Shown piece after piece: positions 2,886 through 38,349 of a stretch of DNA of 64,000 bases (the first letter of the stretch is position 1; every line of letters starts with the position of its first letter). Origin of the DNA: a virus; the IMG/VR virus record IMGVR_UViG_3300034069_000822. One strand, 5' to 3'. A program made the position numbers and the translations under genes. The notes beneath the pieces are model-generated. The model worked only from the letters and a program-made list of their open reading frames with translations. It was not told where the DNA came from and searched no databases.

Positions 2886-3907
2886 CGACGCAACCACGCC
2901 AGATAGTCCGCGCCCTGCTCCACATCGGCGAAGCATTGGACCTTCCCTGTCTGCGGAAACACGACTGACAACACCGCCGCGCCGCGATTGGACTGGGCAT
3001 AGCCATTCACGAGGGCATGGCGATCGCCCATCTTGTAGCCCGATATCTGAGCCAGCCACGCGTTCGACTTCTTTTCAGGAAACTCGATATCGAATAGCCC
3101 GAACGAATGGATATGGCCGGTAACGAAAAGTGCCGCGTCCTGGCCGAACTTGGCATCTCTCAGCGTGCCATGGGTCGGATTGTAGATCGATGAGCCCTTA
3201 CGGCCGTGGGCGGCATCGACACGCGTTTCCGACCCGTTCTTGTGGCAAAGTGTGAACTGTGCCCGCCAATCGATCACGGGGATCTGCGAAGCGCCGAGAA
3301 GCTTGTAGAACTCGGTGCCACCGTTCCATTCGTCGTGATTACCGCCGAGCCAGAGAAGCCATTTGATCCCGGCTTCCATCATGAACCAAGTCGCTAGACG
3401 CCGCTCGGTCTTGGATGAAATGTCGGCCTCGGCCCATAGCCGCGCCAACCTCCCGGTCCATGGCCAATTGTCTGAGGTGTCACCTATGTTCCCGCCATAG
3501 ACGCCGGGATGTCTGGCGATGGCGATATGGCTTTCTAGCGTCTTCCAGTCACAATGGACGCCGAGATGAGGATCGCCGAACCAGAGAATTCCGTAGGGCT
3601 TCTCATCCTTGATCTTGATCGGGAACCAAGATCGAGCCTCGATTGCCTTCTGCTTGCGGTCGTGGGCTTTGCGAAATCGATCGAGGATGTCGTCAATCGG
3701 TTCTTCTTCATCGCCGTGGACGAAAGCGGGGAACTCCACCGCTTCATCCTTTTCGACGTGGATGCTACGGCGTTCCGCAGCCGCAAACTGACTTTTTAAT
3801 GTTGATGCTGGTAGCCCTAAAGCCTTTGCAGCGGCCGCCTTTGATCCGTGTTCCTGTACTGCACAGAGCACGGCTCGCAGTTGTGCCTCATCGGTTGATA
3901 CGACCAT
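2882..3907 (-). CDS. Calcineurin-like metallophosphoesterase with N-terminal Fis-like HTH
   Basis: GDPHLG, GDTSDN, GGNHD, AAHG, GHIH motifs; GSKAAAAKALGLPASTL HTH. Confidence 0.85.
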   Translation of the reverse strand: MVVSTDEAQLRAVLCAVQEHGSKAAAAKALGLPASTLKSQFAAAERRSIHVEKDEAVEFPAFVHGDEEEPIDDILDRFRKAHDRKQKAIEARSWFPIKIKDEKPYGILWFGDPHLGVHCDWKTLESHIAIARHPGVYGGNIGDTSDNWPWTGRLARLWAEADISSKTERRLATWFMMEAGIKWLLWLGGNHDEWNGGTEFYKLLGASQIPVIDWRAQFTLCHKNGSETRVDAAHGRKGSSIYNPTHGTLRDAKFGQDAALFVTGHIHSFGLFDIEFPEKKSNAWLAQISGYKMGDRHALVNGYAQSNRGAAVLSVVFPQTGKVQCFADVEQGADYLAWLRR

Positions 3908-35953: not shown

Positions 35954-36496
35954 ATGGATGAGAACGATTTTTTCATGACGATCCAAGGACAGTTTGTTGC
36001 AGGTGCGCAGCGCTATCTTACAGCCGCCCAAGTGCTGTGCGATTCAACGGAATGGAGAACGAGAGGCAGATTGCTGCAGACGCCGGCGTTACATCTGCTA
36101 GCGCACGGAGCCGAGTTACTTTTCAAATACCCACTCATACGCCATGGCGCGAACCAAGATGAAGTGCGGTCCACCTACGGGCACGATTTGTTGAAGCTGT
36201 GGTCGGCTGACGCCAATGAAATTCTTAGACGGGAATCGCTCCAAGCCGCTGAATTGGTTTGGTCGGCGGCAAGAGACGGCGGGAAATGGCCTAACGACGA
36301 CTTTTCGGAGAATCCTCGCGACGTTCTAGTTGGAGCATTAGGTGTTCTCTCCCACCTGCACGGCCGCTCCAGTTCATTTGCCCTGCGCTATATCATCCAG
36401 AAGGAAACTCGTGCACCAAGGCCGCCATTCCTGATTGAGGCCTTCGGGAGTATTGCCGAGCGCACATGCATGAACCCCGGCTTTCTCGATTACTAG
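35954..36496 (+). CDS. HEPN-like helical protein (moron)
   Basis: LLAHGAELLFK...GHDLLKLW...ALRY pattern. Confidence 0.55.
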   Translation: MDENDFFMTIQGQFVAGAQRYLTAAQVLCDSTEWRTRGRLLQTPALHLLAHGAELLFKYPLIRHGANQDEVRSTYGHDLLKLWSADANEILRRESLQAAELVWSAARDGGKWPNDDFSENPRDVLVGALGVLSHLHGRSSSFALRYIIQKETRAPRPPFLIEAFGSIAERTCMNPGFLDY

Positions 36497-36559
36497 ATGC
36501 CCCTAGGTGACGCCGTCTTGCCCTTTGCCAGTGCCTGGGCGAAGCTCTCATGACGGGCC

Positions 36560-36940
36560 TTGGGGAGAATGGGCATGGAGTTTTGGGTTCCGCTGGTATC
36601 AGCTTTGGCCGGCGCGCTGATCGGTTCCGCAACTTCCATCATCACGATATGGATTCAAGGCAGGAGAGATGAAAGGCGACACCTCCGCGAAAAGGCGGTT
36701 GAGCTCGCCCTTTCCGACTACAAGTACCGATCTGATGTGATCTCTAAGATAGGTGGCAGCCTCTATCCGATTTCACTTCACTTCGCCTACCACCTTGAAC
36801 TTCTCGAAGAGGCATCGAAGGGCAAACTGACACCAGAAGCGATGCAGCGGATTTCTGATAACCACACCGCGCTTCGCGATTTCATCGACCGAAGAGGACG
36901 AGAAGTATCTGATGCAGCAGCCCATCAAACGAAGAAGTAG
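36560..36940 (+). CDS. Membrane-anchored hypothetical protein (moron)
   Basis: N-terminal TM LVSALAGALIGSATSIITIWI. Confidence 0.75.
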   Translation: MGRMGMEFWVPLVSALAGALIGSATSIITIWIQGRRDERRHLREKAVELALSDYKYRSDVISKIGGSLYPISLHFAYHLELLEEASKGKLTPEAMQRISDNHTALRDFIDRRGREVSDAAAHQTKK

Positions 36941-37003
36941 AACGCCACCGCCGCTCTGAGCATTGCAGGGGGATCGTTACTGGCATGATGACCCCGCATT
37001 GGT

Positions 37004-37400
37004 ATCAGGAACGGACTGGACCGCTCGCTTCCCACCCCGCCTTGGCGATCAGGGGAGTGGTACATCGGCTTTCGCCTCCCACACTTTCCCAAGCACCTCA
37101 CGGGCCTTAGCCTCGTCCGTCCGCCGTTCCTGATTTGCTTACCCACACTGGCATCCGCTGGCACATGGCTCTTGAGGTCATGGAGCGCTGGCGCGGGCAA
37201 TTCGAATGATACAGCGAGGGCCGGCCTTTCACCGGCTGCCAGGATAGCTCCTGAGCCTCGCTACGAGACGGGCAGGCCCCGCAAGCATCTGCCGGTTCAT
37301 CTCGCATTTCTGCCGACGCCACCGCCCCCATGGTGACCTTAACGCGACCGGGCCATTATCCTGCTACCGGTGCCGGACTGTCGTTGCCGTCATGGACGGC
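37004..37400 (-). ncRNA. Candidate structured non-coding RNA downstream of the tRNA
   Basis: 11-bp closing stem 37004-14/37124-34 with GNRA-capped inner hairpins; three-way junction 37213-62; no convincing CDS. Confidence 0.5.
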
Positions 37401-37406
37401 GATGAA

Positions 37407-37483
37407 TGGCGCACATGTCTGGACTCGAACCAGAAACCTACCGATTAGAAGTCGGTCGCTCTATCCTGTTGAGCTACTTGTGC
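37407..37483 (-). tRNA. tRNA-Arg(UCU), CCA encoded
   Basis: Cloverleaf: D stem GCTC/GAGC, anticodon stem ACCGA-CTTCTAA-TCGGT, T arm TCTGG-TTCGAGT-CCAGA; one A-A mismatch in the acceptor stem. Confidence 0.93.
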
Positions 37484-37650
37484 GCGGTCCCGGTGCGCCC
37501 AACCCTGTCCGCTCTCGCGGAAACTCTATTGCTGCCTTAGTCGGCCTGCCGAAGCAGGTGCGTTGTTCACGAGGCCTTCCTGTCGCGTTCAACCGACTAC
37601 GGCTATCTTCGGCGGCCGTCGCCTACTCGCAAGATACGCTTGCGAACGAT

Positions 37651-38349
37651 CTAAGCCGCCTGCTTCTGGCGCCGCTTGGCGTTGCGCCACTCACGAAGGC
37701 TCATGCCAGTTGATTTGCTGAAGCTTGGGTCATCACGCCATGAGTATACTCGCTTGGCGTCGTATACTGCGCGATCACCTTCGACCGTAGCGAAAATATG
37801 ACTGATTTCTTGGGTATCAGGCAACACCCCTTCCGCATGATTTTTGCAATGCAAATCAGGTTTGCCGTGCATTCCTGCAAAAAGTGATGCAATGGCGCGG
37901 TTTTTTCGCCTGTGACCAGTGATTTCCGCAATCTTCTCGACATCGCGACACCAGCGCGCAAAGCTGATCCTGCTGCGCCGTCCCGGCCTGGTCAAGGTGC
38001 CCGCTTGTGCCCTCGCCCATGCCCACAATGAACGCCTCTGACCTTCGTCGGTAAGAAAGGATCGCATGATGTCCATGCACCGCTCCCAATTCTCAATCTG
38101 CCGTGTCGTCGGTCGTTTGCCCCACTCCGCCAACACGCGGCTGGCGGACTTCGACCAATCACCCAAGGGGTCGTCCCCTGGTAGGAGTTGGTCCCCAAAC
38201 TCACGCCTGCGCCCATTGATATCGCCGAGATCATGCACCCACGGCAATGTGTACCTGCCGAAGTTTTCCCGAAGCCCATTGACCTCGGGCAACTTGGCCT
38301 CGGTCTCCGCAGCGCGGATGAACAGTTCTGCGATATCGCCTTCGGTCAT
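37651..38349 (-). CDS. Putative late-gene regulator (Q-position protein)
   Basis: Last early gene before the non-coding/late region; function inferred from position. Confidence 0.55.
   Translation of the reverse strand: MTEGDIAELFIRAAETEAKLPEVNGLRENFGRYTLPWVHDLGDINGRRREFGDQLLPGDDPLGDWSKSASRVLAEWGKRPTTRQIENWERCMDIMRSFLTDEGQRRSLWAWARAQAGTLTRPGRRSRISFARWCRDVEKIAEITGHRRKNRAIASLFAGMHGKPDLHCKNHAEGVLPDTQEISHIFATVEGDRAVYDAKRVYSWRDDPSFSKSTGMSLREWRNAKRRQKQAA

Follow-up and report, generated by a model that had tools for sequence, protein, structure and literature searches.

What, if anything, is encoded in the roughly 470 nt without a credible gene that follow a phage tRNA gene in the IMG/VR virus record IMGVR_UViG_3300034069_000822? 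The 64,000-nt window, i.e. the whole stretch of DNA that was analyzed, is phage or prophage DNA with a GC content of about 59%, and it is read here on the minus strand. In this direction, a DnaB-like helicase and a methyltransferase (39.5-42.3 kb) are followed by small unknown genes, by tRNA-Arg(TCT), and then by the gene-free region. Beyond it lie two cargo genes on the plus strand (35954-36940), and terS and terL come next. For the two cargo genes, which thus separate the region from terS, no PHROG matches were found. According to the original prediction, about 400 nt downstream of the tRNA form an undescribed, densely structured, tRNA-associated noncoding RNA in the late leader.

Conserved and lineage-specific parts of the gene-free region

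All of the stems that had been proposed were found in the sequence at the proposed positions. Three elements, namely a hairpin shortly after the tRNA, a three-way junction, and a 131-nt domain closed by an 11-bp stem, also had strongly negative fold z values (Table 1), and 4 of 200 shuffled versions of the three-way junction folded as well as the native sequence. The view that the region is densely structured as a whole did not hold: when 417 nt were folded together, the z value was -1.09, and 12 of 100 dinucleotide shuffles were as good. The prediction that the region is noncoding was borne out. The 74-aa ORF 37107-37331 and the other small ORFs were considered as genes and rejected; they are unconserved, there is no room for them in a close relative, the 1-kb contig L090 (collected loci are referred to by L numbers), and the reading frames across the motif are inconsistent between loci.

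Sequence comparisons delimited the conserved part. A sensitive blastn search against 50,697 phage records yielded a single match, to the Microcystis phage Mwe-JY13, which covered exactly the 131-nt domain with 74.5% identity. For a wider retrieval, two 16-mers out of the blocks in common, a degenerate pattern for the 5' half, and a pattern for the 3' half were used as seeds. These patterns recovered the motif in IMG/VR contigs, in 31 species genomes, and in at least 119 metagenome contigs. The viral and genome collections contained 94 unique full instances, at least 66 further instances were obtained from metagenomes, and a broader pattern yielded at least 154 unique instances. As exact patterns served as seeds for the collections, the seeded blocks seem more conserved than they are; at least one seed left the covarying positions free, and a separate collection replicated the result. 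The covariance model R1, which was built from the alignment A4 described below, matched the window at 37007-37131 with 95.8 bits (E 2.9e-20), and its search of the window revealed no second copy of the motif. The plasmid database contained no match to the motif.

The instances stem from IMG/VR phage contigs, metagenomes, prophages of Hyphomicrobiales, some actinomycete MAGs, and the cultured phage Mwe-JY13, and the phages infect Alphaproteobacteria, Actinomycetota, Chloroflexi, and CPR bacteria. Apart from Mwe-JY13, culturable carriers are available in the form of prophages of Mesorhizobium sp. ANAO-SY3R2, Aminobacter carboxidus DSM 1086, Aureimonas flava, Agaricicola taiwanensis CCM 7684, and Enterovirga rhinocerotis DSM 25903. 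When the region from 35.5 to 39.5 kb of the window was compared with all collected loci by blastn, similarity was confined to 37004-37135 and the tRNA. A search for additional conserved flanking modules gave, apart from tRNAs, few pairwise matches only.

The remainder of the region proved to be of a different nature. L090 contains both the hairpin and the three-way junction, and it lacks both spacers that surround the latter in the window. In the three-way junction of L090, the closing pair shows a compensatory change from A-U to U-A, the hairpin stands after a permuted tmRNA (tmRNA_permuted, 100 bits), and the motif has a hybrid P1. A search for the three-way junction in the IMG/VR contigs resulted in 0 matches. 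Because only 37004-37135 is conserved, and because the hairpin and the junction were found elsewhere only in L090, the presumed 400-nt RNA consists of one widespread RNA, a lineage-specific hairpin and three-way junction, and unconserved spacers. About one third of the 400 bases belongs to the conserved RNA, and the other 270 nt are not part of it. One stretch of spacer 2, at 37195-37212 on the minus strand, contains UCAUUCGAAUUGC, which is almost the same as the sequence leading up to and into the 5' arm of P1 in L021 and L050; it may be the remnant of an earlier, differently armed copy of the motif.

Rfam 15 was searched with the motif of the window and with 15 other loci, and no family matched at E <= 10. 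The same scans of the loci did recover neighboring tRNAs, permuted tmRNAs, and a DUF3800-VIII RNA. Also in the ARAGORN and Rfam calls of tRNAs and tmRNAs, the neighbors were recognized and the motif never was. A literature search with words and sequence strings found no description of the motif, which could be included among the 10,006 anonymous candidates of PMC10690425. Together, these results identify 37004-37134 on the minus strand as a member of a widespread family of small, structured phage RNAs that Rfam does not contain. Of the predicted undescribed, tRNA-associated RNA, the structure, the noncoding nature, the absence from Rfam, and the choice of strand were upheld, and the extent had to be revised from 400 nt to about 125-131 nt.

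Table 1. Features of the gene-free region and of the conserved RNA (coordinates of the 64,000-nt window)
Feature	Position	Strand	Observations
tRNA-Arg(TCT)	37407..37483	-	ARAGORN; Rfam tRNA, 65 bits; upstream neighbor, same strand as motif
6-bp hairpin GCCGUC-CAU-GACGGC	37386..37400	-	6 nt after tRNA; fold z -2.81; elsewhere only in L090
Spacer 1	37263..37385	-	z +1.36, i.e. chance; unconserved; missing from L090
Three-way junction, AGCGAGG/CCUCGCU closing two hairpins	37213..37262	-	z -2.85; lineage-restricted
Spacer 2	37135..37212	-	z +0.16, i.e. chance; unconserved; missing from L090
Conserved RNA motif, whole unit	37004..37134	-	z -2.87; covariance model match; blastn similarity to >50 loci limited to this span
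P1, 5' strand	37119..37134	-	outer stem 37124-37134, C 37123, GGAC 37119-37122; u-4:e3 CG 34, GC 30, AU 21; also u-3:e2, u-2:e1
Invariant GG (37117-37118) and P2 hairpin AC-G-A-GGC-UAAG-GCC-C-GU	37100..37118	-	invariant columns; P2 = 37100-37116
P3, variable arm	37044..37097	-	closing pair G37097:C37044; b9:c-6 GC in 70/93
P3, distal module GUGG-GA-GGC-GAAA-GCC-GAUGUA-CCAC	37057..37082	-	GYRG/CYRC covaries: UA 44, CG 15
Near-invariant junction strand AAGGC-GGGGUGGGAAGCGAG-C-G	37022..37043	-	contains C37023, 3' partner in the long-range pair
P1, 3' strand	37004..37021	-	GUCC 37018-37021, bulged A 37017, G 37016, extra U 37015, outer stem 37004-37014
Long-range pair	G37114:C37023	-	a5:d16 GC 54, AU 38, other 1 (n=93)

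Fold and covariation of the RNA

The family has a common architecture, which comprises a long closing helix P1 with usually one bulged A, a short hairpin P2, an optional variable arm P3, and a near-invariant purine-rich junction with the consensus GG ... GA ... AAGCC-GGGGUGGGAAGCGAG. About 40 nt, mostly unpaired purines that are surrounded by P1, P2, and P3, are nearly invariant. The typical size is about 125-131 nt, and minimal forms have about 65 nt. The junction is locked by a long-range Watson-Crick pair, which joins the R in GGAC-R-AGGC to the Y in GCGAG-Y-GG. In one respect the fold differs from that originally proposed, in which CCAC..CCCC was paired with GGGGTGG: in the family, CCAC pairs with GTGG inside P3, where GYRG and CYRC covary, and GGGGUGG is an invariant unpaired strand of the junction.

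Covariation strongly supported the fold of 37004-37134. In block-anchored alignments, the top pairs by mutual information were all Watson-Crick pairs, and they included the neighbor of the bulged A in P1 (CG 34, GC 30, AU 21), two more pairs of P1, the closing pair of P3, and the long-range pair. In the MAFFT alignment A4 (n=93), the proposed structure paired 82.6% of the cells, compared with 71.9 +/- 0.6% for shuffled partners. The covariation score was 0.290, a value that was reached by none of 500 shufflings (0.125 +/- 0.007), and it dropped to 0.06-0.14 when the partners were slid by 1-3 columns. Double changes were present at 17 of the 24 pairs. The metagenome instances, which had no part in defining the structure, gave the same picture: among the matches listed, the long-range pair was GC in 42 cases, AU in 22, and AC in 2, and the P1 pair was CG in 32, GC in 15, and AU in 11. 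At covarying pairs, G-U combinations outnumbered A-C combinations (39 versus 18), which agrees with folding of the strand that is shared with the tRNAs. The bases near the junction are invariant, so that the lower stem of P2 and alternative pairings of 2-3 bp are not distinguishable.

The arms vary considerably between members. P2 is longer in L066, where it contains a self-complementary insert, and in the actinomycete form, where a U:A pair is added. The size of P3 ranges from near nothing to well over 100 nt (with cores of 42-45 nt to 164 nt), and it reaches about 1 kb in one contig. P3 is dispensable, as it is almost absent from the minimal members L038, L042, L079, and L153 and from the actinomycete form. 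In the contig with the longest insert (IMGVR_UViG_3300048852_000112, 1-2776, comprising L115 and L067), the two halves of the motif are split at the position of P3 by the insert of about 1 kb, which is spanned by a 422-codon ORF on the opposite strand; no Pfam domain was found in it. A second subtype of the 5' half, GCCCGG-U...AAUCC-GGG(A/G)UGGGUAGCGAG, is represented by L178, L193, L205, L210, L217, L244, L200, and L281; it has a G after GCCCG, and a short hairpin or P3 follows directly. Downstream of the 3' strand of P1, C is enriched in the tail: among the 93 members with enough flank, it is present at position 2 in 39 and at position 3 in 38, and the tail reads ACCA in the window. A tRNA-like 3' tail as a general property was rejected, as NCC(A) is present in only roughly one third of the members.

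Genomic context

Association with tRNA genes was quantified for both collections with regard to distance and strand. With ARAGORN, a same-strand tRNA or tmRNA gene was located no further than 500 nt from the core in 22 of the 94 instances, in 15 of them at 60 nt or less, whereas an opposite-strand gene was located at this distance in none. For the metagenome instances, the respective numbers among the matches listed were 11 of 66 and 1. Pooled, the orientation was thus the same in 33 cases and opposite in one (the metagenome part again among the matches listed). About three quarters of the instances have no tRNA within 500 nt. In L030, L133, L137, L148, and L153, the motif occupies a gap of the size of a tRNA, and it is flanked on each side by a spacer of 1-8 nt. 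The slots lie between tRNA-Phe and tRNA-Gln (L030), Ala and Gly (L133), Val and Asp (L137), and two tRNA-Arg genes (L148), in arrays of 19-25 tRNAs, and one copy of the motif was present in each array examined. The motif is thus not specific to a late leader, as had been assumed: in addition to the window, it stands flush between tRNAs in the arrays of jumbo phages, and also downstream of dnaE in a few actinomycete MAGs.

Several further RNA genes were noted near the motif. The order tRNA-Met (CAU), motif, tRNA-Gly (UCC) recurs in L011, L088, L128, and L133 (and in L016, L139, L147, and L078), i.e. in phages of different hosts, and tRNA-Met is the most common upstream neighbor (6 of 17). Phage or prophage tmRNA genes are located 30 nt to about 1.1 kb from the motif in L090 (700-924, minus strand), L034 (1421-1616, plus strand), and L039 (6771-7103, plus strand); two of the three are permuted (Rfam RF04321, 100 and 96 bits) and one is standard (ARAGORN). 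In the viral contig L075, the motif is closely preceded by a DUF3800-VIII RNA (3491-3558, minus strand), which exceeded the gathering score of Rfam RF03075 with 44 bits.

A linked protein partner was sought by clustering about 2000 neighboring ORFs, and no family was present in more than 7 of the 94 loci. The genes downstream of the motif are heterogeneous and include ADH, DUF402, MFS, DUF1326, and SIMPL genes as well as tRNAs and a tmRNA. In the window, the motif lies between the replication and the terminase modules, 1.4 kb away from terS, and the genes next to it are convergent, i.e. encoded on the other strand. A location between replication and packaging modules is also usual for the Hyphomicrobiales prophages.

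In the Gaiellales-like actinomycete MAGs (L097, L102, L104, L106, L108, L113, and L114), a short form of the motif is found 75-450 nt downstream of dnaE; the genes that follow it differ, and two of the MAGs contain two copies each. The motif was detected in 4 of 401 genomes of this actinomycete order. The idea that the actinomycete copies might be a housekeeping RNA, in particular the SRP RNA, was rejected, based on this low frequency and on the presence of RF00169 elsewhere in all three genomes tested. In an Infernal scan of 121 genomes, which addressed the housekeeping role, few candidates were scored.

Truncated copies share a common end. All 5'-truncated copies (L084, two in L091, L099, L105, and L107) begin at (C)CAAGCC|GGGG, the 3' base of P3, which looks like an insertion or recombination hotspot. 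The copy of L084 is located 1.8 kb upstream of terL, and that of L099 is located 0.3 kb from a large serine recombinase.

Possible functions and comparison with known RNA classes

The motif is probably an independent, processed RNA that acts in trans and contains a specific pocket. We infer solely from the arrangement of the genes that it may be stable, processed, and trans-acting. In the proposed course of events, the motif would be co-transcribed with tRNAs on the same strand, within a cluster of stable RNA genes of the phage, and the enzymes that excise the neighboring tRNAs would also release the motif, as a separate RNA of about 65-190 nt. RNase P would free one of its ends by acting on the following tRNA, the other end would arise when the 3' end of the preceding tRNA is processed, and the long P1 helix may protect the released RNA. 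The RNA would then act in trans, with the invariant junction as its putative binding pocket or catalytic core and with P3 as a peripheral add-on, which in many members resembles the L1 stalk that binds uL1 and the tRNA elbow. Invariant unpaired junctions that are locked by a tertiary pair are a feature of aptamers and of small ribozymes, and simple protein-binding hairpins do not show them. As the hosts belong to several phyla, a universal partner is to be expected; among the partners that very different bacteria could share, a small molecule or a part of the translation or tRNA machinery would be the most plausible. Within the trans-acting reading, a partner related to tRNAs or the ribosome is a tentative option that we hold with low confidence. 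Trans action agrees with the lack of a recurrent protein neighbor, the heterogeneous downstream genes, and the convergent next genes in the window; the counterpoints are the many instances that have no tRNA within 500 nt, the occurrence of 5'-truncated copies, and an RBS and a start codon 15-40 nt after the motif in several loci, which would also fit a leader acting in cis.

A more specific version, namely a new functional RNA class with a universal target, seems unlikely on the present data. It would comprise either a tRNA binder that acts in trans, or an aptamer "sponge" or ribozyme that acts on a conserved small molecule or RNA. In the case of a tRNA binder, the L1-stalk-like P3 would dock onto the tRNA elbow and the invariant GGGGUGGG strand would pair with the NCCA end, and phages would thus use in trans a recognition logic like that of T-boxes and RNase P. 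A sponge or ribozyme would act during infection.

It is doubtful that the motif is instead a self-cleaving ribozyme of a new class, which would cut a polycistronic tRNA transcript or a late transcript in the way of theta ribozymes. The anatomy is that of small ribozymes: the minimal core has about 65 nt, about 40 nucleotides are nearly invariant, a long-range pair is present, and one arm is optional. Moreover, the motif stands flush with tRNAs, its genomic contexts are as scattered as those of twister and hammerhead ribozymes, and theta ribozymes show that ribozymes occupy the niche next to tRNAs (PMC10879173). However, no ribozyme family of Rfam matched the motif: the models for twister, twister-sister, pistol, hatchet, hammerhead, and HDV-like ribozymes gave no match on 37004-37134 or on the 15 loci at E <= 10. 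A twister-sister match at 37171-37268, which covers the three-way junction and not the motif, was rejected as being at chance level (E 8.6, 14.9 bits versus a gathering score of 34). An HDV-like fold is also unsuited. By reasoning from the covariation-supported fold, the nested double-pseudoknot order P1-P2-P3-P1'-P1.1-P4-P2' is not formed, because the 5'-most strand pairs with the 3' end, leaving none for P1 or P1.1, and only 2-3 nt lie between P2 and P3. In addition, a single copy per array of about 20 tRNAs, where examined, would be odd for a general processing device.

A cis-acting leader for downstream genes, in the window for the late packaging operon, is improbable. Such a leader could be a riboswitch, a protein-binding leader, or a put-like antiterminator, and it would suit the position of the window copy, the riboswitch-like degree of conservation of the junction, and the RBS and start codon 15-40 nt further on in L005, L012, L021, L048, L050, L051, and the actinomycete loci. 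In contrast, the downstream genes do not share a function or are tRNAs, and an expression platform would find no space at the copies that directly adjoin a tRNA on either side. In the window, the two genes that come next are encoded on the opposite strand, terS is 1.4 kb away, and no terminator-like switch, i.e. no terminator/anti-terminator alternative, was found.

Still less probable is a site of recombination or insertion at the DNA level, i.e. an att- or attC-like hairpin that marks a cargo hotspot and is not a functional RNA. The shared breakpoint of the truncated copies, the nearby serine recombinase of L099, the 1-kb insertion at P3, the hybrid P1 of L090, and the morons adjoining the window copy would all agree with it. 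However, the most conserved bases form the unpaired junction and not the stems, the long-range covarying pair and the tolerance of G-U point to a folded single strand, the co-orientation with tRNAs is strict (33 to 1, the metagenome part among the matches listed), and most copies have no recombinase nearby. Small RNA genes such as those for tRNA and tmRNA are classic targets of integration, and therefore the breaks are compatible with an RNA gene. The weakest explanation, a single large and ornate tRNA-associated RNA of 400 nt like GOLLD or ROOL, is largely refuted and hardly credible, as the noncoding, GC-rich character of the stretch, its location downstream of a phage tRNA, its several local stems, and the location of the Mwe-JY13 copy within about 0.7 kb without an annotated gene are outweighed by a chance-level fold of the whole region, by the lack of conservation of two thirds of it including both spacers missing from its nearest relative L090, by the lack of a GOLLD or ROOL match, and by the occurrence of the motif on its own in slots of 65-130 nt.

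The family is unusually tractable, as the RNA is small, its fold is well defined, about 40 of its bases are invariant, and culturable carriers exist. If the junction is an aptamer, a ribozyme core, or a module that binds tRNAs or ribosomes, the family would be a new RNA class and would show how phages manipulate translation or host signaling. The family deserves an Rfam entry, which would enable the annotation of such "empty" intergenic regions.

The motif can be compared with several known systems. Like GOLLD and ROOL, it is borne by phages and prophages and is often near tRNAs; however, those RNAs are 5-10 times larger than the unit of 65-130 nt, and neither sequence nor structure matches. 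With cmscan, no GOLLD (RF01998) or ROOL (RF03087) was found in the window at the gathering threshold or in 36500-38000 at E <= 10. HDV-like theta ribozymes occur beside the tRNAs of gut phages (Kienbeck et al. 2024, PMC10879173). They and the motif are compact, lie directly beside phage tRNAs, and have an optional variable stem and a conserved core, whereas the junction strand of the motif has at least 20 nt in contrast to the short J4/2, its topology is unlike the nested double pseudoknot, and it did not match an HDV-like family of Rfam.

Two resemblances, both tentative, point towards the translation apparatus. The L1 stalk of 23S rRNA (H76-H78) binds uL1 and the tRNA elbow. The concept of mRNA mimics of the L1 stalk that bind uL1 has been described (PMC2175363). 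In many members, the distal part of P3, GUGG-(G/U)AG-GC...GC-(N)UGAA-CCAC, parallels the GGUGG(U/G)AGGC...GCC...UUGAAAUACCACC of the stalk; the likeness is confined to the optional P3, and nothing in the 23S locus that was searched corresponds to the invariant core. A search of the Mesorhizobium rRNA locus (23S, flanking spacers, and 5S region) with the model of the whole motif gave no match, and short-word blast against the same locus gave 7-9-mers only. With the model R2, built from 47 P3 modules, the best sense-strand match in 23S rRNA was the L1 stalk (L167, 3545-3607), at a non-significant 10.1 bits (E 0.85). The second resemblance concerns the T-box discriminator AANNNGGGUGGNACCGCG, whose GGGUGG core pairs with the NCCA end of the tRNA. 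The junction strand of the motif, AAGCC-GGGGUGGG-AAGCG, has the same GGGUGG core, which is regarded as a lead only. The motif lacks Stem I, the specifier, and the terminator/antiterminator, and no T-box family of Rfam matched.

That stable RNAs without an assigned function are hidden in the tRNA clusters of phages has been known for 50 years. The T4 species 1 and species 2 RNAs (rnaC, rnaD) are stable non-tRNA RNAs of such a cluster. In its gene arrangement, the motif resembles them as a small structured RNA gene in or beside a tRNA array, on the strand of the tRNAs, and its spacing suggests that it could likewise be released by tRNA-processing enzymes. In contrast to them, it has no T-arm, tRNA-like elbow, or cloverleaf and has an invariant purine-rich junction of its own, and it also occurs alone in prophages and downstream of dnaE in the few actinomycete MAGs. 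As a structured non-tRNA RNA in or beside tRNA arrays of the same strand, the motif belongs with the unexplained stable RNAs of phage tRNA clusters, a kind that is known in general; its fold and its sequence family appear to be new.
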